Positions 3,158 to 59,837 of a stretch of 64,000 nt of DNA are shown piece by piece (position 1 is the stretch's first letter; the number at the start of each line of letters is the position of its first letter). Under the pieces are notes generated by a model that saw only the letters and a program-made list of their open reading frames with translations, searched no databases and was not told where the DNA came from. A program made the translations under genes and the position numbers. Source of the DNA: a virus (taxonomy: Duplodnaviria; Caudoviricetes); the IMG/VR virus record IMGVR_UViG_3300023170_004399, positions 192,001-256,000 of that record. The stretch is one strand, 5' to 3'.

Positions 3158-3159
3158 TA

Positions 3160-3915: not shown

Positions 3916-3920
3916 ATTTT

Positions 3921-3958
3921 CTGTAAATTTTGCAAAAAATATATATGTTTGTTATATT
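3921..3958 (+). promoter_or_regulatory. sigma70-type phage promoter (CTGTAAA-extended)
   Basis: CTGTAAATT-TTGCAA-17 bp-TATATT; near-identical copies at 34013, 37034, 44225, 63160. Confidence 0.8.
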
Positions 3959-3990
3959 ACTATTACTAACCAACAAACAAAGGATCAAAC

Positions 3991-4236
3991 ATGTCAGATT
4001 ATCTTAAAAAACAATCTTTATCTTCAGTGTACGTTAACTGGGATGATATTGATTTAATAGTAGAAATAAATAGAATTTTGGCTTTAAGTTTAGCTAGAAG
4101 AACGCCTGTCGTTAATTTAGTATTTAAAGAATTACAATCAGAATGGAAAAAAAGACATTCGTCTAAAAGGGTACCAAAAATCATTTTAGATGATGAATTT
4201 ATTTTTCATGGAGAAAATAATGAAAAAAACAAGTAA
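3991..4236 (+). CDS. hypothetical protein
   Basis: AGGA RBS, first gene after promoter. Confidence 0.65.
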   Translation: MSDYLKKQSLSSVYVNWDDIDLIVEINRILALSLARRTPVVNLVFKELQSEWKKRHSSKRVPKIILDDEFIFHGENNEKNK

Positions 4237-4363
4237 AACACGTAAAATACTTGGCGGTGTCAAGTTATTTTTAATGTGTAATTTTGTAATAACATATAGT
4301 TTGGCTTTCGCTACTACGAAAGTAATGTACAACAAATATTTTAATAATAAGGAGAATAAATGA
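4220..4363 (+). CDS. small membrane protein (47 aa), not in ORF track
   Basis: GGAG RBS; MKKTSKTRKILGGVKLFLMCNFVITYSLAFATTKVMY...; its TGA overlaps the dnaE ATG. Confidence 0.55.
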   Translation: MKKTSKTRKILGGVKLFLMCNFVITYSLAFATTKVMYNKYFNNKENK

Positions 4364-7300
4364 TTAAAAAACCAACCCGTTTTGTAGGACTACATTCACA
4401 TTCAGGCTTTTCTACATTTGATGGATTAGATTACCCAAATGAACACATAGACTTTTGTCGTGAAAATGGTCTTGATGCTTTTGCTTTAACTGACCATGGT
4501 CACATGAATGGATTTGCTCATGCATATCTGCACACTAAAAAACTTAATGATGCTGGTGCAAATTTTAAGTTTATTCCTGGTTGTGAAATGTATGTACATC
4601 CTGATTTAGATGTTTGGTCTTTAGACCATCAAATTCAAAAAGCCGCTAAGCAAGGTGATCAAGCAGCAATAAATAAACTTAATGCGCAGCGTGAAAAAAT
4701 CATTACGCCACTATTTGATCGCACTGATTCTGATGATGAATTAGAAGATATAGAAATTATTAATGATACTAATCAACTCACTATTGAGAATGAAGAAGAA
4801 ACCAAGTCTGGTAAATTTTATGACCCAGTTAAGCGTAGACATCATTTAGTTGTATTACCAAAAACAAATAATGGTATACAAAAAGTTATGCATTTAGTTT
4901 CACGTGGTTACTTAGAAGGTTTCTTCAGGTTCCCACGCATTGATTACAAAATGTTAAGAGAAGCTGGTAAAGATGGTGATTTAATTATTTCAAGTGCTTG
5001 TTTGGGTGGACCATTTGCTTATGAAATATTCAAACATATGCAACAAGTAGAATTTGATCATCTTCATCCGGATTTATTAGATAGACCTGGTATGCAAGAA
5101 AGAGTGCTTAATGATATGGGCAATGTACTTGATCAACTTAGTTGGGCTGTTGGTCTAGAAAATGTATTTTTAGAACTACAATTTAACAAGTTATCTGCAC
5201 AACATTTAGTTAATAAAGCTTTGCTTTTATTCGCTGAAAAACACAACTTACAAAATCAATTAGTCGTTACTTGTGACAGTCATTATAGTAGACCTGACCA
5301 CTGGAAAGAACGCGAGTTATATAAAAAACTTGGCTGGCTTAACTATAAAGACTTTAATCCAGAGAATATGCCATCATCAAAAGAAGATTTGAAATGCGAG
5401 TTATATCCTAAAAACTCGAAGCAAGTCTGGGAATCATATATTGAAACTACACAAGAATATCCTGGTATATACAATGATACGATAGTCTGTGATGCTATAG
5501 AAAGAACATATGATATAGCTCATGATGTCATTGATCATGATATGTCTGTCGATACTAGTATGAAATTGCCTAGCTATGTAATTCCTGAAAATATGTCACC
5601 TGATAAAGCTTTGTTAGAAGCATGCAAAAAAGGTTTGGTTGCTAGAGGCAAACATACTGATCAGGCATATATTGATCGATTGAAAATGGAATTAACAGTT
5701 ATACGTGAAAAAGGTTTTTCCGCTTATTTCTTAACTATGAAAAAGATGTTAGACATTGCCAGACGTGAGATGTTTGTTGGCCCAGGTCGTGGTTCTGGTG
5801 CTGGTTCTTTAGTTGCTTGGACGCTTAATATTACTGATATGGATCCAATAGAATATGGTTTGCTTTTTGAAAGGTTTTTGTCTATTCATAGAAAAGGATA
5901 CCCTGATATTGATACTGATGTTGGTGATAGAGACCGCTTAATTCAAATGTTGCGTGATGAGTTTTCAGCTGAAAATGTTATACCTATTTCTAACTACAAT
6001 ACTTTTAAATTAAAGACACTAGTTAAAGATATCTCTAGGTTCTACGGCATTCCATTCGAAGAGTCCAATAATGCGCTTAAGACTGTCGAAAATGATGTTA
6101 TATCTGCTATACGTGGACCTGGTTTTAATCGCGGTACATTTGTATTAGAATACAAAGATGCACTAGAACATTCTGACAAGTTTAGAGATTTTATAGAAAA
6201 ATACCCCATGATAGCAGAACCTATCAATGTTTTGTTTAAACAAAATAAAGCATTAGGACGTCATGCAGGCGGTGTAATTGTATCTGAAAATATAGCTGAA
6301 AGAATGCCACTTATTCGCGCTAAAGGTGAAGCACAAACACCTTGGACCGAAGGCATGACTAGTCAGTTAGAAAAATTTGGTTGGATTAAGTTTGACTTAC
6401 TAGGGCTGGGTACTTTACGTATTATTCAAGATTGCATTAAAATGATATTACGTGAAAAGACTGGTAAGTTTGAACCATCTTTCAAAGAAATCCAAGATTG
6501 GTACAATAAAAACTTAGCTCCCGACACCATTGATCATGATGATCAAGAAGTGTATAAGAATGTTTATCATGATGGAAACTTTGTTTCGACATTTCAGTGT
6601 GTAAATGCTGGTGCTCAAAGACTATTTATGAAATGTAAACCAACTAGTATAGTTGATTTAGCAACTCTAACCTCTATATATAGACCCGGTCCGCTTCAAG
6701 CACACGTTGATAAACTATATCATAAGCAAAAAAGCAATCCGGATATAATCGATTATAAGCACCCTCTTATAAAAGAGTGTTTAGAGGAAACTGCTGGCTG
6801 TATTATCTTTCAAGAGCAGGTTATGAATTTGTGTCATGTTGTCGCTGGTTTTCCAAAAGAAGACTGTGATATGATTAGACGTAAATTGATGAAAAGAAAG
6901 ATTGGTGAAATGGGTGGACCAGACCCTGAAGTTAAAATTGCTTTTGTTAAAGGTGCCGTTGAAAACGGTGTGCCAGAGAAAGTAGCAGACAAACTATTTG
7001 AAGATATTCTTTATTTTGCTGGTTATGGTTTTAACAAATCACATGCTGTTGCATACGCAATGATTAGTTACCAGTGTGCTTATTTATTAACACACTTTCA
7101 AGAACACTGGGTGAAAGCTGTGCTTAATTCGACAGCTAATGATCCAAAAGCACAAGCAAAAGCTATTACTGAAATTAAGTCATTAGGTTATGGATTAGTA
7201 CCTATTGATATTAACTTAGCTGAAAAGAACTGGACAATTGTTGATGGTAAAAAGTTAATGCCTAGTTTTTACAGCTGTAAAGGTATTGGTGAAACTGCAC

Positions 7301-7959
7301 TCGATGAGATTATTGATATGCGTCCATATAAATCTTTTAAAGATATGTTTTGGGATGAAGATGGAAAGTGGAAACTCAAAAAGTTTAATAAGCGTGCTGT
7401 AGATTCTTTGTTGAAGATAAAAGCTTTTGATTCTTTTGATGAAATAGGTGAAGGTAAACTATTTTGTTCTTACCAGCATGCTTACGATGTTATTATTAAC
7501 AACTGGAATGATTTGCGAAAGTCTCTTAAGAAAGAGCCTGATTATGGTCAAAGAGTATTTCATGAAAAAATAGAAGAGTTACATGGTACGCCTGAATGGA
7601 CAAAGCTTGAGTTTTGCACAAATAAGATGAATTTAATCGGTGCTTTCAATGTAAATGATATTATTTCAGATGAAATACTAAACAAGATACAGACTAGAGG
7701 TATCAAACCTATAAATGAAATGGAGCCCAATTCAAAAGGTTTGTGCTGGTTTGTTATACTAAAAACTACTGTACGTTTAACAAAAAACAAAAAGAAGTAT
7801 TTATCGTTACAAGTCGTTGGCAATGATGGTTCTGAATATAGAATGTTTTTGTGGGGCTGGAATGGCGACCCAATAGAACCATATACTTTTTGTGGTGCTG
7901 AAGTCTCGCATAATAGTTTTGGTTATTCTACTAAACAAAAAGTTTTGAAAACTTTGTAA
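4360..7959 (+). CDS. dnaE: DNA polymerase III alpha subunit (family C)
   Basis: PHP motifs HSHSGFS, TDHG, SACLGG, DSHY; GRGSGAGS; catalytic PDIDTD; RHAGGV; KFDLLGL; YRPGP; YGFNKSHA. Confidence 0.97.
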   Translation: MIKKPTRFVGLHSHSGFSTFDGLDYPNEHIDFCRENGLDAFALTDHGHMNGFAHAYLHTKKLNDAGANFKFIPGCEMYVHPDLDVWSLDHQIQKAAKQGDQAAINKLNAQREKIITPLFDRTDSDDELEDIEIINDTNQLTIENEEETKSGKFYDPVKRRHHLVVLPKTNNGIQKVMHLVSRGYLEGFFRFPRIDYKMLREAGKDGDLIISSACLGGPFAYEIFKHMQQVEFDHLHPDLLDRPGMQERVLNDMGNVLDQLSWAVGLENVFLELQFNKLSAQHLVNKALLLFAEKHNLQNQLVVTCDSHYSRPDHWKERELYKKLGWLNYKDFNPENMPSSKEDLKCELYPKNSKQVWESYIETTQEYPGIYNDTIVCDAIERTYDIAHDVIDHDMSVDTSMKLPSYVIPENMSPDKALLEACKKGLVARGKHTDQAYIDRLKMELTVIREKGFSAYFLTMKKMLDIARREMFVGPGRGSGAGSLVAWTLNITDMDPIEYGLLFERFLSIHRKGYPDIDTDVGDRDRLIQMLRDEFSAENVIPISNYNTFKLKTLVKDISRFYGIPFEESNNALKTVENDVISAIRGPGFNRGTFVLEYKDALEHSDKFRDFIEKYPMIAEPINVLFKQNKALGRHAGGVIVSENIAERMPLIRAKGEAQTPWTEGMTSQLEKFGWIKFDLLGLGTLRIIQDCIKMILREKTGKFEPSFKEIQDWYNKNLAPDTIDHDDQEVYKNVYHDGNFVSTFQCVNAGAQRLFMKCKPTSIVDLATLTSIYRPGPLQAHVDKLYHKQKSNPDIIDYKHPLIKECLEETAGCIIFQEQVMNLCHVVAGFPKEDCDMIRRKLMKRKIGEMGGPDPEVKIAFVKGAVENGVPEKVADKLFEDILYFAGYGFNKSHAVAYAMISYQCAYLLTHFQEHWVKAVLNSTANDPKAQAKAITEIKSLGYGLVPIDINLAEKNWTIVDGKKLMPSFYSCKGIGETALDEIIDMRPYKSFKDMFWDEDGKWKLKKFNKRAVDSLLKIKAFDSFDEIGEGKLFCSYQHAYDVIINNWNDLRKSLKKEPDYGQRVFHEKIEELHGTPEWTKLEFCTNKMNLIGAFNVNDIISDEILNKIQTRGIKPINEMEPNSKGLCWFVILKTTVRLTKNKKKYLSLQVVGNDGSEYRMFLWGWNGDPIEPYTFCGAEVSHNSFGYSTKQKVLKTL

Positions 7960-7973
7960 AGACTTAGTATAAT
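7945..7973 (+). promoter_or_regulatory. sigma70-type promoter for modification operon
   Basis: TTGAAA-17 bp-TATAAT upstream of the kinase gene. Confidence 0.6.
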
Positions 7974-8003
7974 AAAAATATTACACACTAACAAGAGGTA
8001 CTT

Positions 8004-8480
8004 ATGAATTATGGTATTATTCTTGACGGCGCAGAGCAGCAAGGTAAATCAACCCTTGCTGCAAAGCTAAGCAAGTTATTAGGATATCCAATCAGACATT
8101 TCGATAAACCACCCGAAAATTTTGATTTTTGGGAAGATTATTTTATTGAAGCAGAAAGCAATTGTCCATGGTTATTAGATAGATGTTTTACTAGCGAGTT
8201 GGTTTATGGCAAATATTTTAATCGTAGTAGAATAAGCGATGAACATAAAGCTCGTTTAGAAAAAAGATTTACTGACTTAAATTACATGTTTGTTCTTTGT
8301 GAATTGGATAATGATTGGATTGATAGAGAAGAGACTGTAACAAAAGAACAAAATATAGAAATAAAAAAATTATATAGGGACATGTATAATAATCTTAACA
8401 TGCCTAAAATAATCGTTAGACCTGATGAAAACGGTATTAAACAAATATTAAAACTACACAATAAAATTATAGGAGAATAA
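8004..8480 (+). CDS. dNMP (thymidylate-like) kinase
   Basis: P-loop ILDGAEQQGKST and LLDR motif of the TMK family. Confidence 0.8.
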   Translation: MNYGIILDGAEQQGKSTLAAKLSKLLGYPIRHFDKPPENFDFWEDYFIEAESNCPWLLDRCFTSELVYGKYFNRSRISDEHKARLEKRFTDLNYMFVLCELDNDWIDREETVTKEQNIEIKKLYRDMYNNLNMPKIIVRPDENGIKQILKLHNKIIGE

Positions 8481-10289
8481 ATGACTACTAAAACAGCACT
8501 TATGTTAACACTCGGACACAATAGCTCTGCAGTATACTTTGATGGAAAAAAATTAATAGGTTATGAGGAAGAGAGGTTAAATAAAGTAAAATCATCTTCT
8601 GCTTATCCAGCACTTGCAATTGAAGAGATAATGAAACATACTGATATAAAACCCGGTTCTAAAGTTTTTGTATCTCACTGGTTTAATGATTATGACTTTT
8701 ACGAAAAACAATGTAAATATTTTGACACCGATCATTTTAATACTTTGTGTAAAAAGTTTGACCTCACACCAGTACACTTAAGTGATGATTTTACTCATCA
8801 TGATGCGCATGCTTTTTCTGCTATTGGGTTTGCTAGATATCACTATATTAAAAATGCTAGCGAATATAATAAAAGAGCACATGGCAATAAAATGCACACT
8901 ATAGTTGCAGATGGTTTTGGCAATGATCATGAAGTAGTGTCTATATATGAATCTGATATTATTAAAGAGAAAGGTGACGGATGGCAAAGAAATGACATAT
9001 CTCAACCAAAACTAATATTCAGACACAAAGGTTACTGTGAAAGTCTAGGTTTAATGTATCAATATGCAGTTGATTATGTTGGTATGAAAATGAACCAAGA
9101 TGAATATAAATTTTTAGGTTATGAATCATCTATAACTAAAGTTTTAAGTAGTGAAGAATTAAGTGAATTAAAAAAGTATGCTGATCATGTTGCTGAGATG
9201 CAATTTCACAATATGATTATGCATGAAAACTTAATACATCATAAAATAAATGAACCACATATTGTCAATAAAGAAAGTCTGAAATATACGCACACGTATT
9301 GGTTTAATATATATAACACTTTGATGGATCGCTGTGTTGGCGGTGGTAAATCAGCATTGCACACAAATGAACTGAGAGTTGTTATTGGTCATTTCGTTCA
9401 AACAGTTATTGAATCTGTATTGTTAAAAATTTGTAATCACTTCAATATTGAAAATGTTGCTCTTGCTGGTGGAATATTCTATAATGTTAAACTTAACAAT
9501 GTAATCATGAATAAAGTGAAAGGCCTCTTCTCTGTTATGCCTCTTGCTGGTGATCAAGGTTGCGGACTAGGTATGTATGAAGCATTCTGTGGTTCACTTA
9601 ATTACAACACTTTAAAAATTGGTAAAAGACCACCACAAAATTCTTATTACAATTTTATTGATGATGAAATAAAAAACAACGTGTATTATTTCAAAGATGT
9701 TGAAGAAGCAAAAAAACAGCTTACTACATTTCTGTCACATAATAAAATTGTTAATGTTGTAAGAAGCAATATGGAATTTGGTCCTCGTGCCTTGTGTAGT
9801 ACTACTACTTTTGCCTTACCTCTCAAGTCTAATGTTGAATTTATAAACACAATGAATTCTAGAAATACTGTTATGCCTATGGCTCCGGTAATGAGAATGA
9901 AAGATGCTAGCAAATATTTCAAAGCAGATAATTTTAAAAGAGTACTAGGATCAGATGAGTTTATGATATTAACTTACTATTACACTAGTGACAATCTAGA
10001 CTTGGTAAAGATTGGTGGTGTATGTCACAAGCATCCAACTCTAGATACATATTCTGGTCGTCCACAGTTTGTAACTGAGAATAGCGATGAATTTACATTT
10101 GATGTATTAACTTCTCTTTCAGAAGATCATGATCTTGACCCTATTGCAATCAATACTAGTTTTAATTCACATGGCACTCCTATTGTTTTTGATTTAGATA
10201 GTGTTTTTAAAAGTTTTAGATTTGAATATGATAAAGCAAAAACAAATGGTGTAAAACTTCCTTTCCTGTTTATCGTGGAAGGTGAATAA
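8481..10289 (+). CDS. NodU/CmcH/TobZ-family carbamoyltransferase
   Basis: HNSSA, EEERLN, HHDAHA, ADGFG, SLGLMY, AGG-YNVKLN, AGDQG, MEFGPRAL, NTSFNSHGTPI. Confidence 0.93.
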   Translation: MTTKTALMLTLGHNSSAVYFDGKKLIGYEEERLNKVKSSSAYPALAIEEIMKHTDIKPGSKVFVSHWFNDYDFYEKQCKYFDTDHFNTLCKKFDLTPVHLSDDFTHHDAHAFSAIGFARYHYIKNASEYNKRAHGNKMHTIVADGFGNDHEVVSIYESDIIKEKGDGWQRNDISQPKLIFRHKGYCESLGLMYQYAVDYVGMKMNQDEYKFLGYESSITKVLSSEELSELKKYADHVAEMQFHNMIMHENLIHHKINEPHIVNKESLKYTHTYWFNIYNTLMDRCVGGGKSALHTNELRVVIGHFVQTVIESVLLKICNHFNIENVALAGGIFYNVKLNNVIMNKVKGLFSVMPLAGDQGCGLGMYEAFCGSLNYNTLKIGKRPPQNSYYNFIDDEIKNNVYYFKDVEEAKKQLTTFLSHNKIVNVVRSNMEFGPRALCSTTTFALPLKSNVEFINTMNSRNTVMPMAPVMRMKDASKYFKADNFKRVLGSDEFMILTYYYTSDNLDLVKIGGVCHKHPTLDTYSGRPQFVTENSDEFTFDVLTSLSEDHDLDPIAINTSFNSHGTPIVFDLDSVFKSFRFEYDKAKTNGVKLPFLFIVEGE

Positions 10290-10912
10290 TGAAAATTAAA
10301 ACAATTATAAAACCTGAATATGAAAATGACGATTATCTTTTAGAATTGTCAGGAGTGCCTGATTGTCAAGAATTGCAAAATATAGAAGGCGTTGATTTTG
10401 ATTATTTGCATTTTAAATATCAAAAATTTAAAAATATTGATACTGCAGTTGAGGGCTGGGAACAATTTGGTTCCCGGCCGTCTTTGAGAAGTCTAAGCGA
10501 AATGAATGGTCAATTAACTTCTACAGTGTACACGAATGCTGTAAGTAAAAATAATGAAAACTTAAGCTATGATGCCAGTATTAAAATTATTAATTCAATG
10601 TTAAGTAAAAACCCAAATACTAGAAGGGCATTTGTTAGATTTGCATCACCTCTGTCAGAATATTATGTAAGCACTCATTCTCCTATAGATGTAACATGTC
10701 TTAGCGCAATACATTATTTAAAAGACAGCTGTAAATTAATATTCAGGGCTTCAGATATTAAGAATGAACTGTTGTATGACATTATTACTATTAACTCATT
10801 CTTTTTGTCACCAATATATAAAGATAAAAATTACAACATAAAAGTATATGCTAGCACTGCACAAAATATTGAATATTGGGAAGACACAATGAAAATACTT
10901 GGTAGAATATAG
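10289..10912 (+). CDS. degenerate thymidylate-synthase-fold protein
   Basis: LSKNPNTRRA, VTC (catalytic-Cys position), RASD-x7-D; no recognisable HIY motif or N-terminal folate-site region. Confidence 0.6.
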   Translation: MKIKTIIKPEYENDDYLLELSGVPDCQELQNIEGVDFDYLHFKYQKFKNIDTAVEGWEQFGSRPSLRSLSEMNGQLTSTVYTNAVSKNNENLSYDASIKIINSMLSKNPNTRRAFVRFASPLSEYYVSTHSPIDVTCLSAIHYLKDSCKLIFRASDIKNELLYDIITINSFFLSPIYKDKNYNIKVYASTAQNIEYWEDTMKILGRI

Positions 10913-10922
10913 TGGAGGAAAT

Positions 10923-11759
10923 ATGAGTAGTTTTGATAAAATATTTACTGATCTAAATGAAATGGGTGAATCTTTAGAAACAAGAGGTTTGTTAGTTATG
11001 GAAATGGAAAACTATAGCTATACTTTAGCCCCTTATGAAAGATATGTATCGTACCCAGCTAGAAAAATGAAACTTAACTATATTAAAAAAGAGTTTCTTT
11101 GGTATCTTAAAGGCGATAAATATGATACTAGTATTTGTGATCATGCTAAAATGTGGAAAGATTTAATTAACGAAGATGGTTCGATTAATTCAAACTATGG
11201 ACAGTATGTTTTTGGTAGCCAGTTTCAATATGGCAAAGTTATTGATACATTAAGAAAAGATAAGAATTCTAGAAGAGCAAGTATAATGATTTTATCTCAA
11301 GCTCATTTGGCAACTGAGACAAAAGATTATCCGTGTACGTATTCTATCAACTTTAGAATTAGAAACAATAGATTAAACATGACTGTTAGAATGAGAAGTC
11401 AAGATGCTATATTTGGTATGACTAATGATGCGCCATGTTTTTCCTTTATACACGAAATGGTTTACGTGCACCTTAGAGATTTAAAATACCCCGATCTTCT
11501 ATTAGGTGATTATCACCACTCAGCTGACAGTTTTCATATATACGCTAGACACTTTAAAATGTTTAAAAATATACTTGAAAATATTAGGAATAGGGAATAT
11601 AATACAATACAAACACCGAGAATAAGCTCTGGTGCAGAAGTTAGATACCTTAGAGGTTTGCATATCCACAGAGAAAATCATAAAGGTACTGATGAAGATT
11701 TTATAAAATCAATTAAAGAAGAATATAAATTTACAAAATGGTTATTAAGCGAGGATTAA
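10923..11759 (+). CDS. dCMP hydroxymethylase-type thymidylate synthase homolog
   Basis: KKEFLWY, SNYG, SRRA, YPC, RSQDAIFGMTND (Asp at the position that is Asn177 in E. coli ThyA and Asp179 in T4 gp42), SFHIYARH. Confidence 0.85.
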   Translation: MSSFDKIFTDLNEMGESLETRGLLVMEMENYSYTLAPYERYVSYPARKMKLNYIKKEFLWYLKGDKYDTSICDHAKMWKDLINEDGSINSNYGQYVFGSQFQYGKVIDTLRKDKNSRRASIMILSQAHLATETKDYPCTYSINFRIRNNRLNMTVRMRSQDAIFGMTNDAPCFSFIHEMVYVHLRDLKYPDLLLGDYHHSADSFHIYARHFKMFKNILENIRNREYNTIQTPRISSGAEVRYLRGLHIHRENHKGTDEDFIKSIKEEYKFTKWLLSED

Positions 11760-11763
11760 AAAT

Positions 11764-12204
11764 ATGAGTACAATGAAAATATCAAAAATACGTAAAGTAA
11801 AAACACCGACAAGAGGAACTGATCAAAGTGCTGGTTTAGACTTCTATATCCCAGATGACTTTGATCTAAAGAGATTATCTCCTGGTATGAGTGTCTGTAT
11901 ACCATCAGGCATTAAAGCTAATGTTCCAGCTGGTTATGCTCTTATAGCTTTTAATAAATCTGGTGTGGCATTGAAAAAAGGTTTACAGGTTGGGGCTTGT
12001 GTAGTCGATGAAGATTATCAAGGTGAAATTCATTTACACTTAATGGCTACAAAAAGCACAGAGTTAAAACCGGGAGAAAAAATAGTGCAGTTTGTGTTAT
12101 TACCGGTAAATTATTCTACCGTTTCAGTTGTGCCTGAAGAAGATTTGTTTGTTGAACAAACAGAAAGAGGTGCTGGTGGTTTTGGTTCAACGGGAGTAGA
12201 ATAA
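11764..12204 (+). CDS. dut: trimeric dUTPase
   Basis: SAGLDF, NKSG, VVDEDYQGE, QFVL, RGAGGFGSTG. Confidence 0.93.
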   Translation: MSTMKISKIRKVKTPTRGTDQSAGLDFYIPDDFDLKRLSPGMSVCIPSGIKANVPAGYALIAFNKSGVALKKGLQVGACVVDEDYQGEIHLHLMATKSTELKPGEKIVQFVLLPVNYSTVSVVPEEDLFVEQTERGAGGFGSTGVE

Positions 12205-13214
12205 TGAGAAAAATATGTGTAACTGGTGGTTTAGGCTTTATTGGTGGGGAGTTCGTCAAAGAAGTATTAGCTAAGTATGATGACACAATTGTTTTCATTA
12301 TTGATGATGAATCAAATCCAACCTATGAGCCAAGTGATTTTGGAGTAAAGGTAAGATGTCTTTTGTTTGGCATGGTGCCTCATTATGACTTGCAGAAAGA
12401 CATAAAAGAAAATAATATAAAAATTGTATCGATACAAGGTGATTGTTCTAGTGATCTTGCTTTAAATTTTATTGCTAACAATGATATATCACATGTTTTT
12501 CATTTCGCAGCTAAGCCTCGCGTAGAATGGACAGTTGAAAACCCTGTTGAGTCAACAGTTGAAAATTTTGTAAATGTAATAGACATAGCAAAAGTTTGTG
12601 CTGATAACAATATTCGTTTAGTACATTCTTCCACTTCAGCTGTATACGGAAATCAATTTATACCTGCACATGGTTTACCTGAAAATGTTAGTCAATATCA
12701 CCCAGCTAGTCCTTATGCAGCTGCTAAATTATCCGCAGAAGTATATCTCGACATGTATAAAAAATTATATAACTTGGATTATGTTGCATTTAGATATTTT
12801 AATGTATATGGTGAAACGCAATTGGGAGATTCACCTTACGCAACGGCAGTATCCGCTTGGAAACATCGATGTGAAATAGGTATGCCTTTACGATCTGATG
12901 GTGACGGAGAACAAGCTCGAGATATGATACATGTACGTGATGTTGCACGTGCTAATTTAAACCTAGGTTTTTCAAATAAGATCGGCGTATTTAATGTCGG
13001 TACTGGAAAAAAATATACTAACAATTTTATACTTTCAAAATTCCATGATGCTGGTTTTACAAATGTAACAAATGCGCCTGAAAGACCAGGTGATGTTAAA
13101 TACACATTGGCAGATATTACAAAAATAATAAACACGGGTTTATGGAAACCTGAGATTAAGTTTGAAGATGGTTTAGAAAGAGTTATTAGGAGCATTAATG
13201 TTGTGGAAAAATAA
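12204..13214 (+). CDS. NAD-dependent nucleotide-sugar epimerase/dehydratase (extended SDR)
   Basis: VTGGLGFIG, HSSTSAVYG, PYAAAK (YxxxK), FRYFNVYG, RDMIHV, FNVGTG, RPGD. Confidence 0.92.
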   Translation: MRKICVTGGLGFIGGEFVKEVLAKYDDTIVFIIDDESNPTYEPSDFGVKVRCLLFGMVPHYDLQKDIKENNIKIVSIQGDCSSDLALNFIANNDISHVFHFAAKPRVEWTVENPVESTVENFVNVIDIAKVCADNNIRLVHSSTSAVYGNQFIPAHGLPENVSQYHPASPYAAAKLSAEVYLDMYKKLYNLDYVAFRYFNVYGETQLGDSPYATAVSAWKHRCEIGMPLRSDGDGEQARDMIHVRDVARANLNLGFSNKIGVFNVGTGKKYTNNFILSKFHDAGFTNVTNAPERPGDVKYTLADITKIINTGLWKPEIKFEDGLERVIRSINVVEK

Positions 13215-13599: not shown

Positions 13600-14448
13600 A
13601 TGTTAGTTGAACCAACATCTGTAAATTGTGTAATCTATCATGCTAATTGCAATGATGGATTTGGAGCTGCATATTCAGCTTGGAAACTTTTAGGTAATCG
13701 TTGTGAATACATACCTTGTGTTCATGGTGAAACACCACCAGATGTAACTGGTAAAAAAGTAGCAATATTAGATTATTCTTTCAGTAACAAAGTTACTAAA
13801 AAATTAATGAAACAAGCGGAGTCACTAATAGTAATAGATCATCACAAATCAAACATGGTTGAATTACATGATTTAACTAACACTATATTCGATTTAAATA
13901 AGTCTGGTGCCATGTTGGCTTGGGAGTTTTTTCATCCCGGGAAAGAACCTCCTAAATTTATACAGTACATAGAAGATAGAGATCTTTGGAAATGGGAGCT
14001 GCCTTATTCTAAAGAATTCTCAGCAGCATTTGACATGGTACCATGGGACTTTGATGAATATGAAAAATTTGAAGATGACAGTGTTTTTGATGATGCTGTT
14101 AAACGTGGTTCGTATATTTTAGCCTATAGTAAGACTGTTATTAAAAAGGTGTGCGACAAAGCTGTTAGAAGATCATATAAAGACATGGATGTAATGGTTG
14201 TCAACAGTTCACACTGGATATCAGAAATAGGCGCTAATTTAGCTAAGGATTGTGACTTTGCTATGATATGGTATTATGATCACGATGAAAAAAATTATAG
14301 ATGTTCGTTACGGGCTTTTCATGATACTGTCGACGTAAGTGAAATAGCAAAACAGTTTAACGGTGGCGGTCACAGGAAGGCAGCTGGTTTTACACTGCCA
14401 TTTACTAAACACCCAGATTGTATATTTAAAGGAAACAATGATAAGTAG
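13600..14448 (+). CDS. DHH/DHHA1-family phosphoesterase
   Basis: YHANCNDGFGAA, IDHH, EDRDLW, GGGHRKAAGF. Confidence 0.9.
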   Translation: MLVEPTSVNCVIYHANCNDGFGAAYSAWKLLGNRCEYIPCVHGETPPDVTGKKVAILDYSFSNKVTKKLMKQAESLIVIDHHKSNMVELHDLTNTIFDLNKSGAMLAWEFFHPGKEPPKFIQYIEDRDLWKWELPYSKEFSAAFDMVPWDFDEYEKFEDDSVFDDAVKRGSYILAYSKTVIKKVCDKAVRRSYKDMDVMVVNSSHWISEIGANLAKDCDFAMIWYYDHDEKNYRCSLRAFHDTVDVSEIAKQFNGGGHRKAAGFTLPFTKHPDCIFKGNNDK

Positions 14449-14866
14449 ATATAAACAAAAATTAAATGTATTCGGTGAAATATGTAAATCAGTTGCGTCA
14501 CTATCGTACGACCCTAAATTTAAAGTAGGGACTGTAATTTTCACTGATGATTTTAGAGAAATATTAGCTATTGGTTATAATGGCAATTACAAAGGCGGGC
14601 CTAATAAACGTGACAGTAATGAGACAGGTAAAAGTGGTTTTTTACATAGCGAAGAAAATGCTTTGCTTCATTTGTCATACCCTTTCGCAAGTAGGGATAA
14701 GTTGATATTAATGGTTACTTATAAACCTTGTCCTATGTGTGCTAAGCGAATAGTAAATGCTGGTATAAAAAAGGTAATTTATATAAATGATTATAATAAA
14801 CTCGGGGATGAAACGGATGACATATTTAGTATAGGGAATGTTGTTTGTGAGAAACTCGGAGAATAA
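14438..14866 (+). CDS. dCMP deaminase-family protein
   Basis: AIGYNG, HSEENA, PCPMC zinc motifs; start moved to ATG 14438. Confidence 0.88.
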   Translation: MISRYKQKLNVFGEICKSVASLSYDPKFKVGTVIFTDDFREILAIGYNGNYKGGPNKRDSNETGKSGFLHSEENALLHLSYPFASRDKLILMVTYKPCPMCAKRIVNAGIKKVIYINDYNKLGDETDDIFSIGNVVCEKLGE

Positions 14867-50489: not shown

Positions 50490-51068
50490 ATGAAAAAATA
50501 TGACATAATACTTGCGGATCCGCCGTGGCCGTATAATTCTAGAAGAATGGCACAAAACAATGGAACACATATTGCTGGTATTGAAGATGAATATGCGACA
50601 ATGTCGATGGAAGAAATGTGTTCTCTTCCAATCGGAAATGTAATGGCGAAAAATTGTGTTTTGTATCTTTGGGCGACAGGGCCTAAAATGCCTGAAGCGT
50701 TTCAATTAATGAAAGCTTGGGGCTTTAAGTATTCGACTATGGCATTTGTATGGGATAAACGAATCCCAAATCCCGGGTGGTATTCCTGTTCCCAAGTGGA
50801 GTATGTGTTGGTCGGGAAGAAAGGAAAGTGTCCTAAGAGAGCAAAGACAAATACTATGCAGTTTTTATCAGAAGCTAGGACAAAACACTCAAAAAAACCT
50901 GAGGCTATTCAAGATCGTATCGATGAACATTGGGTTGACTGTGAGAAGCTTGAGTTATTTGCAAGAAGATATCGTCCGGGGTGGGACTGCCTCGGTCTAG
51001 AATTGAATGGTACTATCCAAGATTTTCTTGCAGGAGTTCCTATGCCCTTAAGGAAGGTTATAAAATGA
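50490..51068 (+). CDS. MT-A70-family N6-adenine methyltransferase
   Basis: IILADPPW, YATMS, LYLWAT, AWGFKY, HSKKP, KLELFAR. Confidence 0.92.
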   Translation: MKKYDIILADPPWPYNSRRMAQNNGTHIAGIEDEYATMSMEEMCSLPIGNVMAKNCVLYLWATGPKMPEAFQLMKAWGFKYSTMAFVWDKRIPNPGWYSCSQVEYVLVGKKGKCPKRAKTNTMQFLSEARTKHSKKPEAIQDRIDEHWVDCEKLELFARRYRPGWDCLGLELNGTIQDFLAGVPMPLRKVIK

Positions 51069-51406
51069 AAACTTTTTTAGCGGGTGCTATTTTTGCAATT
51101 GCTCAAACCTTGGCATGGTTCCAGTCAAATTCTGGCATTATTGGCGGATGGATGGCACAAAATTATATATATGTTGCTTTATTATTTGGCCCAATTGTCT
51201 CAGTTATGTTTGCTGTTGCAACTAAGATGATGTATGAACAAGGTGTCACTCTGTGGTCTATACGTTTTTTAACTTTCGGATTAGGTTATTTAGTGTTTAT
51301 ACCTTTGACTTGGCATTTTTTAGGTGAAGAAATTATAACAGTTAAAAATGTGCTTTCATTTTTTCTTTGTTTATCTTTGATATCAGTACAATTTTTTTTA
51401 AAATAG
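51065..51406 (+). CDS. four-TM membrane protein (SMR/DMT-like)
   Basis: Four hydrophobic helices, FLGEEI motif. Confidence 0.6.
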   Translation: MKTFLAGAIFAIAQTLAWFQSNSGIIGGWMAQNYIYVALLFGPIVSVMFAVATKMMYEQGVTLWSIRFLTFGLGYLVFIPLTWHFLGEEIITVKNVLSFFLCLSLISVQFFLK

Positions 51407-51413
51407 GTTTAAA

Positions 51414-52016
51414 ATGAGCAAATCAATGAGAATAATCGGATCAACTGCACATGGCGCTGAAGAAAGACAAGTTAGAGATTATTACGCAACAGATCCTCAA
51501 GCACTGTTTGATTTATTTTCAGCAGTAAAAAAAGATGAGGGAAACTCTTTTTGGAAAGGCAACAATATTTGGGAGCCTGCATGCGGAGATGGAAATTTAT
51601 CAAACGCGATGAGAGAATTAGGATATACAGTACATGAAACAGATATTCATGATTATGGTACCGGTCACAAAGTATTGGACTTTCTAGAATATGACAAGCC
51701 TGACGAGTGGAAAGGAAACATAGTTACTAATCCACCATATAATATTGGTAAAAAATTTATTGAAAAGGCATTAGAGAGTATTGGTGAAGGGTATAAGGCG
51801 GCATTTTTAATGCGTATTCAATTCCTAGAAAGCAAAGGTCGCCACGAGTTTTTCAAGAAATTTCCACCAAAATTTGTTTACGTGTTTTCTTCCCGTATCC
51901 GTATCTTTAAAAATAATGATCAGGTTAAATATAGTGGTGGTCAGCCGCTGTGTTATGCATGGTTAATTTGGGAAAAAGGATTTGAAGGTGACACAACACT
52001 CAGATGGATTAAGTAA
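51414..52016 (+). CDS. amino (N6A/N4C) DNA methyltransferase
   Basis: DYYATDP, IWEPACGDG (motif I), IVTNPPY (motif IV). Confidence 0.88.
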   Translation: MSKSMRIIGSTAHGAEERQVRDYYATDPQALFDLFSAVKKDEGNSFWKGNNIWEPACGDGNLSNAMRELGYTVHETDIHDYGTGHKVLDFLEYDKPDEWKGNIVTNPPYNIGKKFIEKALESIGEGYKAAFLMRIQFLESKGRHEFFKKFPPKFVYVFSSRIRIFKNNDQVKYSGGQPLCYAWLIWEKGFEGDTTLRWIK

Positions 52017-52611: not shown

Positions 52612-52816
52612 TGTTGGTGATTTAGTTAGGTGGACTGGTGAACAAGGTTGGAAACCGGTAAAAACTGGGTCTGTTGGCATAGTTTTAAAAATGGATCCGT
52701 GGAGAGTTGTAGATTTTGACGTACTTTTTGAAGATGGCAGTATAATGACATGTCACAAAAAAGATTTAGTAATTTTACAAAAAGGAGGTAACAATGACAC
52801 AAAAAAAGAAAAGTAA
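52586..52816 (+). CDS. small KOW/SH3-like protein
   Basis: VNVGDLVRW...VGIVL...FDVLF...DLVIL. Confidence 0.6.
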   Translation: MKDWNHVVNVGDLVRWTGEQGWKPVKTGSVGIVLKMDPWRVVDFDVLFEDGSIMTCHKKDLVILQKGGNNDTKKEK

Positions 52817-53129
52817 AAGTACAGGCGGAGGAGGGGTTGATTTAAAAGACAGGAATGAGGAGAAGTCTAAATTAACACCGCCAAAAAAATACAATGTAGT
52901 TTTTTATAATGATGACTATACCCCAATGGAATTTGTATGGTTAGTACTGATGATGGTGTTCGGACATAATGAGGCGACTGCATGGAAAATCATGATGGAC
53001 GTACATGAGAACGGTAAAGGAATAGCCGGTACATATAACAAAGAAATAGCAGCTATGAAAGTTAAAAAGTCAATGAGTTTAGCCAAAGAAAGTCAGCATC
53101 CACTTTTAGTACAAGCAGAGGAGGTATAA
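52794..53129 (+). CDS. clpS: ATP-dependent Clp protease adaptor
   Basis: PPKKYNVVFYNDDYTPMEFV, MMDVHENGKG. Confidence 0.93.
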   Translation: MTQKKKSKSTGGGGVDLKDRNEEKSKLTPPKKYNVVFYNDDYTPMEFVWLVLMMVFGHNEATAWKIMMDVHENGKGIAGTYNKEIAAMKVKKSMSLAKESQHPLLVQAEEV

Positions 53130-54010
53130 TGTATGAGTTACACGTGCATTTAGATGGTTCTATTAGACGCGAAACATTTTTAGAATTAGCTAAATATTAC
53201 AATATTGATGTCACATCAGATTTTGGTTTTAAAAAAGGCATGAGTTTGATTGATGCTTTAGGTATGTTCCATAAAACTGTGGCTGTCATGAAAGATATGA
53301 ATAATATCACTAGAATTACATCCGAGCTTTGTGACGATTTAAAAAATGACGGTGTTGAATATGCAGAGATAAGGTTTGCACCTCAGTTACACTCTAAAGA
53401 TATTACTAGTGTAATTAAAGCAGCACATGATGGTTTAAAATATGGCTACAATCTAATATTGTGTGGACTATATGGGGAACACCCATCTATTTTAGAAAAC
53501 TTGATTGACAAAGGAAAAGAATTCCAATCAGTTGTAGGTATTGATCTAGCAGGTGCACCTCAACCTAATCATAAATATGGACTGTTTGATTATAAAGATG
53601 CTTACAAAGAAGCTAAAAACCTGGGTTTCGGTAGGACAGCACATGTAGCTGAAGGCAGAAATTCTGTTGAAATATATCAAGCAGTTACTTATTTAGAAGT
53701 GCAGCGTATAGGACATGCTACAAGTGTGTTAGAAATACCATGGTTGATAGAGTTTCTTAGAGACAAAAAAATAACTATTGAGGCATGTGTAACCAGTAAT
53801 GTGCATACTGGAATATTCTTAAGTGAAGAAGACCATCCAATTAAGAAATGGATTGAGCTTGATATGCCAGTTGCTATATGTGCTGATAATACTTTGATGT
53901 CAAAAATAACTACTAGTCAGGAAATTCAGAAACTTAGAACTAAGTGTGGTTTAACTGACAAACATATTAAACATTGCATGAAGTCAGCTAGGGCAGCTAG
54001 ATTTTTTTAG
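53129..54010 (+). CDS. add: adenosine deaminase-family amidohydrolase
   Basis: ELHVHLDGS, YAEIRFAP, GIDLAG, AHVAEG, RIGHA, EACVTSN, ADNTLMS. Confidence 0.9.
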   Translation: MYELHVHLDGSIRRETFLELAKYYNIDVTSDFGFKKGMSLIDALGMFHKTVAVMKDMNNITRITSELCDDLKNDGVEYAEIRFAPQLHSKDITSVIKAAHDGLKYGYNLILCGLYGEHPSILENLIDKGKEFQSVVGIDLAGAPQPNHKYGLFDYKDAYKEAKNLGFGRTAHVAEGRNSVEIYQAVTYLEVQRIGHATSVLEIPWLIEFLRDKKITIEACVTSNVHTGIFLSEEDHPIKKWIELDMPVAICADNTLMSKITTSQEIQKLRTKCGLTDKHIKHCMKSARAARFF

Positions 54011-54552: not shown

Positions 54553-54580
54553 AAGAGAGGGCATGTCCCTCTCTTTTTTT
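54553..54580 (+). terminator. rho-independent terminator
   Basis: AAGAGAGGG-CATGT-CCCTCTCTT followed by a T run. Confidence 0.8.
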
Positions 54581-55679: not shown

Positions 55680-56777
55680 GTGGAAACTAGATTATATATT
55701 AAATACAAAGATGGAAATCAAAAAAACATGTATGTTGATTACCCTGTTAAAAGCAATGGGTATTCTGGCACTACAATAGGAGAATTGGTTTTTAATACTA
55801 GTATGACTGGGTATCAGGAAATTTTAACTGATCCATCATATAAAGGTCAAATAGTATTGATGACTGCTAATCATATTGGAAACACGGGAGTAAACACTGC
55901 AGATGTAGAATCTGAAAGGGTTTGGCCTCGAGGTTTATTGGCTAGGAATATTGACTTAATTAAAAAACCTAGCAACTGGAGATCAGAGAAAAATATAGTT
56001 GAATACTCTAAGGAAAATAAGTTTTCACTGGTTAGTGGTATTGACACTAGATATATCACTAAATTAATTAGAAATAATACGAATGTTGTTGCATGTATAT
56101 CTAGTGAGGATAGAAACTCTGTTAAGAAATTGTTAGATCAATTTAGTTATGAAGATGAATCTAAAGCTTCTGATGCTTCTAGATCATTTACTGTAAATAA
56201 AACAAAAACTGGCAATGGTTTTAAAGTTAACTTAATAGATTGCGGTTACAAAAGTAATATCTCGAGATTATTAACTAAGTATGGTTGTGATGTCACAGTC
56301 GTTAATGTAAATGACAGTTTATTTAATTGGACAAATGACTGTGATGCTTTATTTTTTAGTAATGGACCAGGCGATCCCACTGTTATGACAGAGGCTATCG
56401 ACAAGATTAAATCTATAATGGGAACAAAGCCAATGTTAGGTATATGCATGGGTCATCAGCTGATATCACTTGCTATAGGCGGGAAAGTTTACAAAATGCC
56501 GTTTGGCCACCGCGGTGCAAATCATCCAGTTATAGATTTAAAAACTAAAAAAATAGCTATAACTAGTCAAAATCACGGTTATTGTGTTGATAGAAGTATT
56601 GGTGAAATAGCGACAATAACACATATAAATTTAAATGATCAAACGGTGGCTGGAATTGAGTGTTATAAAAACAAGGTTTCTAGTGTACAATATCATCCTG
56701 AAGCCAAACCTGGCCCAGAAGAAAGTAACAAACTAATAGAACAATTTATTGAATTTGCAAGGAGTTTTAATGCCTAA
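55680..56777 (+). CDS. carA: carbamoyl-phosphate synthetase small subunit
   Basis: [55 protein letters not shown] (Cys-His-Glu triad intact). Confidence 0.97.
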
Positions 56778-59469
56778 AAGAAATGATATCAAAAAAATTA
56801 TGGTTATAGGTTCAGGACCTATAGTAATTGGACAAGCATGTGAGTTTGATTATTCAGGTACACAAGCTTGTAAGGTACTTAAGAATTTAGGGTACGAGGT
56901 TGTATTACATAACTCAAATCCGGCAACTATTATGACTGACCCAGAATTTGCTGATGCTACATACATTGAACCTTTGACAGCAGAATACGCTAAAAAGATT
57001 ATTGAGAAAGAAAAACCATGTGCAATATTACCAACAGTCGGTGGTCAAACTGGTTTAAATCTAGCAATGGAGTTATATAAGTTAGGTGTTTTAGATGAGC
57101 ACAACGTTGAATTAATTGGGGCAAAGCCTGATGCAATAGAAATTGCTGAAGATAGAGAAATGTTTAAAAATAAGATGATTGAAAAAGGTATACCAGTTGC
57201 TCCTTCTGGTATAGCTCATAACTTAGATGATGCGAAACAAATATTGAATGATATTGGTTTACCATTAATTATCAGACCTTCATACACATTAGGCGGAGAA
57301 GGCGGTGGTGTTGCCATGACAGAACAAGAATTTTATTCAATAGTTTCATTAGGTTTAGATTTAAGTCCTATCAGTCAAGTGCTTATTGAAAAAAGTGCAT
57401 TAGGTTGGAAAGAATTTGAAATGGAATTAATCAGAGACAAAGATGATAATGCTATTGTAGTTTGTTCTATAGAAAACTTTGATCCTATGGGTGTACATAC
57501 TGGTGACAGTATTACTGTTGCTCCAGCACAAACGTTAACTGATGTAGAGTATCAAAAAATGCGTACAATGTCTTTTGATGTTATTCGTGCAGTCGGTGTA
57601 GAAACTGGTGGTTCAAATATTCAGTTTGCTGTCGATCCTGAAACTGGTTATATGTTTGTTATAGAAATGAATCCTCGTGTGTCGAGAAGTTCTGCTTTGG
57701 CTTCAAAGGCTACTGGCTTCCCTATAGCAAAAATAGCAGCGCAGTTAGCAGTTGGTTTAACATTAGGTGAAATAAACAATGATATAACTAAAAAGACACC
57801 AGCTTGTTTTGAACCAGCTTTAGACTACACTGTTGTAAAAATACCCAGATGGAATACAGAAAAATTCAAAGGTGCAACCAGTACCTTAACTACACAAATG
57901 AAGGCTGTCGGGGAAGTAATGTCCATTGGCACCAGTTTTAGTGAAGCAATGCAAAAAGCACTTTTATCATTAGAGCTTAAGTTGCCTAGTTACAACTTAG
58001 TAGCAACTGAAGATTTGTTAGAAGATATTAAAGTGCCACAACCTGATAGAATATTTAAAATACTTGAGTTGATGTCACGTAATACTCCTATATCTGATAT
58101 ACATAATTTAACAAAGATAGACACATGGTTTTTAGAAAACATGTTTGCTGAGACCAAGCTAGATAACACTGTCTTTAAAATGGTTGACACTTGCGCAGCT
58201 GAATTTAAATCAGAAACGCCATATTTGTATAGCACTACTGGCTATGAGTGTGAATTACCAATAGATAAATCAAACATTGTAACGATATTAGGCAATGGTC
58301 CAAATAGAATAGGGCAAGGTCTTGAATTTGATTACTGTTGTGTACATGCGAGCATGGCTTTGAAAGAGTTAGGTTACACTAGTGCAATGGTTAACTGCAA
58401 TCCGGAAACTGTTTCAACTGATTATGACACTAGTGATATATTGTTCTTCGAACCTATTACAAAAACATATGTTGATAATATTGTAAAGACATTAGACACA
58501 AATCTAATAGGTTCCATTGTTCAGTTTGGTGGTCAGACACCTCTTAAGTTGGCTAATCAAATAGGTAATATTTGTGGTACTGATCCTGAATCTATTGACA
58601 TATGTGAAGATAGAGAATTGTTTAATAACATGATTAAAGATTTAGGCTTCAAACAACCACCAGGTTTTATTGCTGCTAGTATATCAGATGCGCATAAAGC
58701 AAAAGATGAATTAGGTTACCCAGTATTGGTTAGACCTTCTTATGTTTTAGGTGGTAAGTGTATGCACGTTTGTTATAATGATGTAGAATTTAATAGTGCA
58801 GTTACAAAGGCTTATGATGCTAGTAATGGGAAGCCGCTTTTGGTAGATAAGTTTTTATCAAATGCAATAGAATATGATGTTGATGTTGTTTGCGATAAGT
58901 TTGGTAACTATGAAATAGCTGCTGTAATGGAACACATAGAAGAAGCTGGTATACATTCTGGTGATTCTTCTTGTATTATACCATCACTATCATTAACGAA
59001 AAAACAGCGTAGTAAAATAGAAACAATATGTGATAAGCTATGTGATGTCTTGAATGTAGTAGGACTAATGAATATTCAGTTTGCTATTAAAGAAGATGAG
59101 GTTTATATTATAGAAGTCAATCCTCGAGCAAGCCGGACTGTACCTTTTGCTAGTAAGGCAACTGGTGTACCATGGGCAAAGATAGCAACCTACATGTGTA
59201 TGGGTGAAAACCTAAATGAGACAATGAAGAAGTTTAAAAGAAATAGAAAGAATTTGTTTTATGTTAAATCACCAGTCTTCCCATGGAGAAAATTCTCTGT
59301 TGATGATACATTGTTAGGACCAGAAATGAAAAGTACTGGTGAAGTAATGGGTGTTGGAAGTACGTGGCATGAGGCTTATCTAAAAGCTTTGTTAGCAAGT
59401 GGCATTAATGTTAAGAAAAGATCTAATATACTGATCTCTATTGCTGACAAAGATAAAAGTAATTTATAA
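56770..59469 (+). CDS. carB: carbamoyl-phosphate synthetase large subunit (two ATP-grasp domains; stops at the start of the MGS domain)
   Basis: [73 protein letters not shown]. Confidence 0.96.
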
Positions 59470-59837
59470 AGTCACGTGATTATTTAAAACATTTGATAAA
59501 TGATTTTGGTTGTGAAATATATGCTACTAAAGGCACGTATGAAATATTGACATCGATGGGATTAGAAGTTAACTTGTCTGAGAAATTCCTTGCAGGACAG
59601 AATAGCTCAATAAGTTTGATAGCAAATAAAAAAATCGATTTAGTATTAAACACAACCAGTGGTGAAGAACATATTAATGAAGAAGCAAAATTGAGGTTAG
59701 CGTGTTTAAGGCAGGATATACCTTGTATAACAAGTTTATTTGCAATGACAAAGTTAATAAAAGCTATAGCCTCAAAAGCTGATAAAGAAAAAATAATTGT
59801 TAGAAGTTTACAACAAATAGGGGATAATAATGATTAA
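59463..59837 (+). other. carB: CarB C-terminal MGS (allosteric) domain in the -1 frame
   Basis: After ...ADKDKSNL* the -1 frame continues [21 protein letters not shown]...IDLVLNT...LRLACL..IPCITS. Confidence 0.85.

Follow-up and report, generated by a model that had tools for sequence, protein, structure and literature searches.

We analysed a 64,000-nucleotide stretch of viral DNA (hereafter the window; positions 192,001 to 256,000 of the IMG/VR record IMGVR_UViG_3300023170_004399, Caudoviricetes), which encodes a complete glutamine-dependent carbamoyl-phosphate synthetase (CarAB, EC 6.3.5.5) of predicted activity and, 47 kb upstream of it, a predicted cytosine-modification cassette built around an O-carbamoyltransferase. 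The explanation we favour, with a probability of roughly 60 %, is that the phage synthetase supplies carbamoyl phosphate for cytosine carbamoylation. This was the central proposal of an original prediction made from the window sequence, and it is supported by the presence of both systems in one genome, by independent captures of carB and by operons joining carB to the carbamoyltransferase gene in two phage lineages. Phage CarAB would make carbamoyl phosphate in the infected cell from glutamine, bicarbonate and two ATP, which would mainly go to the TobZ/NodU-type O-carbamoyltransferase that the phage itself encodes (8481-10289). If it acts like its homologue studied by Yang et al. (2021), this transferase would use carbamoyl phosphate and ATP to convert 5-hydroxymethylcytosine (5hmC), itself supplied by a deoxycytidine monophosphate (dCMP)-hydroxymethylase-like enzyme (10899-11759), to 5-carbamoyloxymethylcytosine (5cmC). 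One carbamoyl phosphate would be spent per modified cytosine; with a synthetase of its own the phage would have a supply independent of host repression of carAB, and part of the product may also go into pyrimidine synthesis by the host.

A carbamoyl-phosphate synthetase and a predicted cytosine-modification cassette in one phage genome

The synthetase is encoded by two overlapping genes on the plus strand. carA (55680-56777) specifies the 365-amino-acid glutamine amidotransferase (GATase) small subunit; its open reading frame (ORF) matches Pfam CPSase_sm_chain (1.2e-38) and class-I GATase (3.1e-47), alignment places its Cys-His-Glu triad (GICMGHQL, HPE) at E. coli C269/H353/E355, as in a small subunit, and its GTG start codon lies 6 nt past an AAGGAG. 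carB (56770-59837) encodes a large subunit of 1,022 amino acids as read in other assemblies of the same phage; in this record the frame stops at 59469 and reading resumes in another frame at 59493. Pfam CPSase_L_D1 and D2 are each matched twice, giving the two preATP-grasp/ATP-grasp halves, together with a partial D3, and an MGS-like allosteric domain (59428-59837; Pfam MGS, 5.8e-15) aligns to E. coli residues 937-1062. CarB aligns over its full length with E. coli CarB (1BXR; phmmer E = 0) and shows about 52 % identity to enterobacterial carB by tblastn. Since the E. coli CarB alignment begins at the first residue, the true start of carB is ATG 56770 and not TTG 56749; an AAGGAG stands ahead of this ATG, carA and carB overlap by 8 nt at the carA stop codon, and the pair is translationally coupled. 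Short ORFs on the opposite strand within carA and carB have no support. The Pfam domains, the CarA triad and the full-length CarB alignment thus agree with the original prediction that both genes have intact catalytic motifs. Like E. coli CarAB (PDB 1JDB, 1BXR, 1CE8) the phage enzyme has two subunits, the four-domain order of CarB and the CarA catalytic triad; it differs in being phage-encoded, in the loss of about 49 oligomerisation-domain residues and in having no pyr or arg genes adjoining.

The cassette, also on the plus strand, opens with a deoxynucleoside monophosphate (dNMP)-kinase-like protein (8004-8480; Pfam AAA_28), followed by the NodU/CmcH/TobZ-type carbamoyltransferase (602 amino acids; Carbam_trans_N and Carbam_trans_C; phrog_1601, 6e-56), whose nearest solved relatives are NovN, GdmN and TobZ. 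Two proteins of thymidylate-synthase (TS) fold come next. The first is short (10289-10912) and without a Pfam match, and aligns with hydroxymethylase-like proteins including the invariant Cys and Asp. The second is the dCMP hydroxymethylase-like TS homologue, whose top solved matches are T4 deoxycytidylate hydroxymethylase (1B49) and the CMP hydroxymethylase MilA; it has the Cys nucleophile and, at the position of T4 D179, the Asp characteristic of cytosine-specific enzymes, and is thus of cytosine type. A dCMP deaminase (14363-14866; Pfam dCMP_cyt_deam_1), a dUTPase-family protein, a sugar epimerase/dehydratase and a DHH phosphoesterase complete the cassette. We surveyed metagenomes for loci containing the carbamoyltransferase and recovered 80, with a TS homologue nearby in 60, the short TS-fold protein beside the carbamoyltransferase in 28 and a dCMP deaminase in 16. 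AAA_28 homologues, with weak matches to thymidylate kinase and deoxynucleoside kinase, flank the carbamoyltransferase at loci L020, L053, L118 and L123.

A phage carbamoyltransferase acting with a TS homologue has been reported to produce 5-carbamoyloxymethylcytosine with a strict need for carbamoyl phosphate and ATP; dCMP deaminase co-occurs with the carbamoyltransferase, and the TS-fold/carbamoyltransferase arrangement was found only on modified contigs (Yang et al. 2021, eLife, PMC8670742). The window has the same set of carbamoyltransferase, cytosine-type TS homologue and dCMP deaminase as this 5cmdC pathway, and its carbamoyltransferase is the presumed consumer of carbamoyl phosphate, with 5hmC as the predicted target of modification. 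Comparison of short motifs of the Yang et al. enzyme with the fetched loci gave partial matches only. The main text of that study treats carbamoyl phosphate solely as a substrate and names no source for it, the terms 'synthetase', 'carA' and 'carbamoyl-phosphate' being absent (PMC8670742), whereas the window and two other lineages also encode the synthetase, in some cases within the operon.

Several cassette proteins are of separate interest. The NAD-dependent sugar epimerase/dehydratase (12204-13214) belongs to the cassette both in the window and in its freshwater relatives (L038-L050) and is absent from the lineages with adjoining carB, which hints at extra chemistry in the window group. In each of the three lineages described below, the gene for the short second TS-fold protein separates that of the carbamoyltransferase from the hydroxymethylase-like one, its counterparts (L053:12943-13563, L064:12460-13248 and L118:15649-16416) having the invariant Cys and the cytosine-type Asp. 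At L053:11597-12946 the cassette kinase (AAA_28/deoxynucleoside-kinase-like) is fused to a uracil-DNA-glycosylase-superfamily domain in a protein of 449 amino acids.

carB was captured at least three times by phages carrying the cassette

The closest cellular relatives of CarB differ between phage lineages. For the window clade they are metagenome-assembled genomes of Myxococcota and Alphaproteobacteria (58-60 % identity), for the CarB of metagenome locus L053 they are Clostridia (Acetivibrio, Pseudobacteroides and Ruminiclostridium; 61-63 %), and for the CarB of rumen and gut megaphages they are Bacteroidales (Alistipes and Rikenellaceae; 64-65 %); the other phage CarBs are only 44-47 % identical to that of the window. 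A maximum-likelihood tree pairs each phage CarB group with a different cellular clade as its sister (Shimodaira-Hasegawa-like approximate likelihood-ratio test, SH-aLRT, 100, 95 and 100), and a single phage CarB clade is rejected, being 770 log-likelihood units worse (approximately unbiased test, AU, p = 3.5e-43). Phages have taken up carB from different bacterial phyla on at least three occasions, and in every case the phages concerned have the cassette. All three carB-capturing lineages have the same cassette, which we regard as one system because the TS-fold proteins align with the invariant Cys and Asp.

In two of these lineages carB directly precedes the carbamoyltransferase gene. L053 has the order carA-carB-carbamoyltransferase, with carA-carB directly upstream, and is phage-like in carrying a homing endonuclease, a phage sigma factor, RNase H and a phage TS family. 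carB stands directly upstream of the carbamoyltransferase in L064, L065 and L075, the spacing being 35-62 nt in L020, L064, L075, L118, L119 and L123, and relatives on contigs as long as 397 kb share a block made up of carB, the carbamoyltransferase gene, AAA_28 and two genes of TS fold. The genes upstream of the block in L123 are on the opposite strand, making carB its first gene. The same arrangement was reached from a CarB profile search of IMG/VR, which returned 18 carB loci among 2.9 million contigs; most, located terminally on short gut contigs or putative proviruses, look like host flanks, and three are credible phage genes (G001-G003). G002, a 168-kb record with a terminase, has the order HD nucleotidase, CarB, carbamoyltransferase, AAA_28, second TS-fold protein and TS homologue.

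The carbamoyltransferase is itself rare, with homologues in 15 of 50,697 phage records, and tblastn found no credible carB in any of the 50,697, the 15 included; the matches returned were rejected as host-derived or mislabelled. Three independent joint occurrences of carB and the cassette, two of them in one operon, are very unlikely to have arisen by chance, although no exact p-value can be attached since two of the lineages came from searching around the carbamoyltransferase. The co-occurrence of carAB with carbamoyltransferase and hydroxymethylase, which the original prediction had offered as a check on its proposal, is positive and strongly so, carB having been acquired at least three times by cassette phages.

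No carA, GATase or CPSase_sm was detected on the 168-kb Bacteroidales-phage record. A 288-amino-acid ORF upstream of carB was considered as a hidden CarA of the Bacteroidales megaphages and rejected, as it resembles viral nucleotidyltransferases. One might speculate that CarB in this group uses ammonia or the CarA of the host. Just upstream of the carB operon of these megaphages lies a RimK/glutathione-synthetase-like ATP-grasp protein (L118:6855-8477) and downstream an NAD synthase (L118:19876-20847), carB being without a carA partner on the contigs seen.

Divergent modification of the allosteric and oligomerisation domains

In E. coli CarB, Thr977 and Lys993 are crucial for inhibition by, or binding of, uridine monophosphate (UMP), and Thr1042 for ornithine (PMC6245113). 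The sites that bind UMP and inosine monophosphate (IMP) are altered where carB is part of the operon: L053 CarB has K954M, T974Y, T977D and K993Q, and the Bacteroidales-phage group has T974I and K993N, with K954R in three of four members. The UMP/IMP-site residues are kept in 14 of 14 cellular sisters of these proteins, and in 12 of 12 cellular sisters of the window group. To judge from these substitutions, the lineages with carB in the operon look desensitised to pyrimidine feedback. In G001 the entire allosteric domain is absent. With the equivalents of S948, K954, T974, T977, K993, N1015 and T1042, window-clade CarB keeps all the UMP/IMP- and ornithine-site residues checked, which fits an enzyme still under pyrimidine and arginine control that is probably not desensitised.

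The special feature of window CarB is a deletion in its oligomerisation domain and not loss of the UMP site. Some 49 residues are missing at a junction between KLD and NTVFK (58156-58179, plus strand), where E. coli residues ~478-523 have no counterpart, and Pfam D3 is matched over positions 2-43 of 80 only. The original prediction had noted a shortened oligomerisation region, and the gap proves to be specific to the clade: 47-49 residues are absent from all three members (P0001-P0003; 99 %, 84 % and 65 % identical), while the gap was seen in none of 40 cellular CarBs sampled and in none of the other phage CarBs examined. The E. coli domain forms the tetramer interface, and oligomerisation per se has no effect on regulation (PMC6245113), so the deletion is no argument against catalysis; by analogy window CarB is likely to be non-tetrameric yet active.

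The allosteric domain is split in this record alone by a frameshift at 59461-59462 (59458-59469, plus strand), where A replaces T at 59461 and one T is absent after 59462, yielding a TAA at 59467-59469 and leaving a portion of the MGS-like domain as a separate ORF of 114 amino acids (59493-59837). Tara contig L004 (95.4 % identical) shows one substitution and an extra T at 59461-59462 by blastn and reads a single CarB of 1,022 amino acids. Three near-identical assemblies were compared with the window over 13 kb: L120, L121 and L122, from JGI (Ga0255770_10000305), ENA (262 kb; ERZ27313158, k141_641031) and Logan, at 99.9-99.98 % identity. Each shows one or two mismatches and a single gap, which falls at the frameshift site, where all three read GTTATTTTATAA. 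L120 and L121, the two that span the whole gene, encode intact CarB of 1,022 amino acids, as does P0001. Logan contigs from runs X1, X5 and X8 likewise have the intact form (A>T at 59461 and an extra T after 59462), that from X1 being otherwise identical to the window over the whole stretch compared. Because CarB is intact, with the allosteric domain fused, in six other assemblies of this phage, the frameshift is a defect of this record, and the window sequence contains at least one consensus error. A programmed frameshift and a naturally split allosteric subunit were both considered and ruled out, the gene being intact in the other assemblies.

A wider interpretation, to which we give a little less than even odds, is that cassette phages repeatedly captured carbamoyl-phosphate synthetase from hosts of Proteobacteria- or Myxococcota-like, Clostridia and Bacteroidales affiliation and rebuilt it as a dedicated donor generator, by placement at the head of the operon, by removal of UMP feedback (T977D/K993Q in one lineage, K993N/T974I in another) or by trimming of the oligomerisation domain, one lineage apparently having dropped the glutaminase. 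If this is true, donor supply and not the transferase limits genome-wide modification in large phages, and carB beside a carbamoyltransferase predicts 5cmC genomes.

Alternative explanations for phage carAB

A number of observations count against a role of window CarAB in DNA carbamoylation. Between carAB and the cassette lie 47 kb, and carAB has other neighbours, an adenosine-deaminase-like gene and small ORFs of no assigned role; because of this distance its link to the cassette in the window phage rests on analogy and a shared genome, and carbamoylation of this phage's DNA is itself a prediction from its genes. Every UMP/IMP- and ornithine-site residue checked is retained in window-clade CarB. 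The search for pyrB and argF covers the 64-kb window and a further 9 kb of a genome of about 262 kb. Two of the three credible IMG/VR phages have carAB without the carbamoyltransferase. G003 (L006, IMGVR_UViG_3300032177_000002; 103 kb, direct terminal repeats, rated complete) has carA-carB beside an orotidine monophosphate (OMP) decarboxylase (pyrF) together with a canonical thyA (2961-9819 and record 101408-102268) and a primase-helicase, and its synthetase is apparently tied to pyrimidine synthesis. On G001 (L016, IMGVR_UViG_3300042887_005053; a 204-kb fragment rated 35 % complete by CheckV) neither a carbamoyltransferase nor a TS homologue was found; carA and a CarB of 914 amino acids (8934-12745) have as neighbours a guanylate-kinase-like gene and one for a gp6-like baseplate protein, and the fragment also carries a terminase, a phosphoribosyl-pyrophosphate-synthase-like gene/phosphoribosyltransferase-domain protein and a second GATase. 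Conversely, carAB is present in none of seven other IMG/VR records with the cassette, one a complete genome of 46.6 kb, nor in cultured cassette phages of about 50 kb, and 76 of the 80 metagenome loci show none within 10 kb. As most cassette phages are without carAB, we regard it as an accessory seen mostly in large-genome phages and not as part of the core pathway. The linkage of carAB to carbamoyltransferases that the original prediction expected holds in the three cassette lineages but not in G003, nor on the 204 kb of G001.

These same observations lend themselves to the main alternative account, in which carAB is a general nucleotide and amino-acid auxiliary gene, making carbamoyl phosphate for the aspartate and ornithine carbamoyltransferases of the host, and so pyrimidines and arginine for a large genome, with the DNA carbamoyltransferase sharing the pool. 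That is the published view of viral carB in ocean viromes (Tian et al. 2024, PMC11360552), and it accommodates the pyrF and thyA context of G003, the phosphoribosyltransferase-domain protein and second GATase on the 204 kb of G001, the kept UMP/IMP and ornithine sites of window CarB, the 47 kb between carAB and the cassette, and the ThyX, dUTPase-family protein and dCMP deaminase of the window. Against this account, neither aspartate carbamoyltransferase (ATCase), ornithine carbamoyltransferase (OTCase) nor any other pyr or arg family was found among the window ORFs scanned with Pfam and PHROGs or in the next 9 kb, in keeping with the original prediction that the window holds no other such gene, and ATCase and OTCase were likewise not found in the IMG/VR records G001-G005. 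It also leaves unexplained why all three captures were made by phages with a rare cassette and why carB was twice built into the operon, and why 50,697 sequenced phages with the same nucleotide need are essentially without carB. On balance we think it unlikely that general metabolism is what carAB chiefly serves, while noting that the pyrimidine and DNA-carbamoylation uses of the synthetase are compatible and neither excludes the other.

The product could also be destined for another carbamoylation, in which the carbamoyltransferase, or a further consumer encoded elsewhere in the genome, acts on a sugar, glycan or small molecule, for example a sugar on a modified base instead of 5hmC itself. 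NovN, GdmN and TobZ do act on sugars and antibiotics, and an NAD-dependent sugar epimerase/dehydratase is part of the cassette here and in the freshwater relatives; against this, the carbamoyltransferase is flanked in all lineages by cytosine-type TS-fold enzymes and a dNMP-kinase-like protein, and the epimerase is missing from the two lineages with adjoining carB, which makes a target other than cytosine improbable. Least credible of all, to our minds barely so, is that carAB does nothing for the phage and is passenger DNA, host DNA in decay or the product of a chimeric assembly. The gene is clearly of cellular origin and frameshifted in this record, but the frameshift is absent from the six other assemblies, the ratio of nonsynonymous to synonymous substitution rates (dN/dS) is 0.007 for carA and 0.03 for carB, synteny extends to relatives 84 % identical in CarB and the pair persists at 65 %, and the neighbouring phage gene is present on 22 contigs, with three assemblies collinear through carAB. 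Supply of carbamoyl phosphate for cytosine carbamoylation thus remains the explanation we prefer for the window phage.

A 606-amino-acid ORF beside carB of G001 was examined as a hidden carbamoyltransferase and rejected, being a baseplate gp6/J-like protein. As its 204 kb are rated 35 % complete, the full G001 genome may be very large.

Relation to known viral carB genes and to donor supply in other phages

Phages with 7-deazaguanine in their DNA carry genes for preQ0 synthesis alongside DpdA. The logic is the same as proposed here, in that the phage brings the biosynthesis of the group attached to its DNA and makes modification independent of the host, while the chemistry and enzymes differ and the donor in the present case is a central metabolite that the host makes but regulates tightly. 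Viral carB, for its part, was catalogued from Tara Oceans viromes by Tian et al. (2024, Microbiome, PMC11360552), who count it among new auxiliary metabolic genes and file it under UMP synthesis as an arginine/pyrimidine precursor step. Those genes are marine and virus-encoded like that of the window, whose CarB has relatives in Tara assemblies, and the passages of the article examined contain no link between carB and a carbamoyltransferase or DNA modification (PMC11360552). Already known, then, are the cataloguing of viral carB, the carbamoyltransferase pathway and phage precursor supply in other chemistries; within the literature examined no text connects viral carB with a carbamoyltransferase, and viral carB is listed only as a pyrimidine auxiliary gene.

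Among the main defences of phages against restriction and CRISPR is genome-wide DNA hypermodification, of which usually only the transferases are described; the present case suggests that the supply of the donor metabolite is also under selection in large genomes. If carB feeds carbamoylation, a catalogued "pyrimidine" auxiliary gene would be read differently, and carB found with a carbamoyltransferase would be a simple genomic marker for carbamoylated phage genomes. The phage enzymes would provide natural feedback-insensitive variants of carbamoyl-phosphate synthetase, together with a self-contained pathway of three enzymes, leading from dCMP to 5cmC, which could be reconstructed in vitro or in E. 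coli, and the convergent captures make the supply hypothesis directly testable.

Selection, synteny and genomic context of carAB

Compared with the 95 %-identical L004, the dN/dS of 0.007 applies to carA and that of 0.03 to the carB core, and the allosteric part gives 0.24 from 10 substitutions only; carA and carB are under strong purifying selection. In the relatives with 84 %-identical CarB, synteny covers carA-carB and its neighbours, namely the adenosine-deaminase-like gene upstream and small ORFs on both sides, and the carA-carB pair is retained in the relative at 65 % identity. Across carAB, L120, L121 and L122 run collinear with the window.

The window is low in GC with nearly all genes on one strand, and encodes a DnaE polymerase, ThyX, Fpg, GroEL, a sigma factor, methyltransferases and many ORFs of phage-only PHROG families. 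PHROGs detected no structural or hallmark phage genes inside the window, and its identification as phage rests on the phage-only families and on IMG/VR relatives. A megablast of the region against the 50,697 phage records gave no match, and an IMG/VR search with a single protein returned no relative. DNA of this phage is present in salt-marsh and marine metagenomes, and carAB belongs to a marine or salt-marsh jumbo phage of about 260 kb.

No Rfam family and no tRNA was identified in the window. Sigma-70-like promoter sites occur at chance level and the T4 late-promoter motif is not enriched. A terminator-like hairpin at 54553-54575 (plus strand; 9-bp stem with 5 GC pairs, then a T-run; a pattern match only) is the sole strong one upstream, and the carAB transcription unit may begin past it. 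Upstream of carA, 52794-54010 holds a ClpS-like ORF (by a Pfam match on the identical gene in L120) and a 293-amino-acid gene of the adenosine-deaminase family, the latter kept upstream of carA in L001 and L002 (CarB 84 % identical). Methyltransferase genes at 50490-52016 and 23-583 comprise an MT-A70 family member, a weak Dam-like match and a phrog_56 fragment at the start of the window, and the phage probably combines several DNA modifications.

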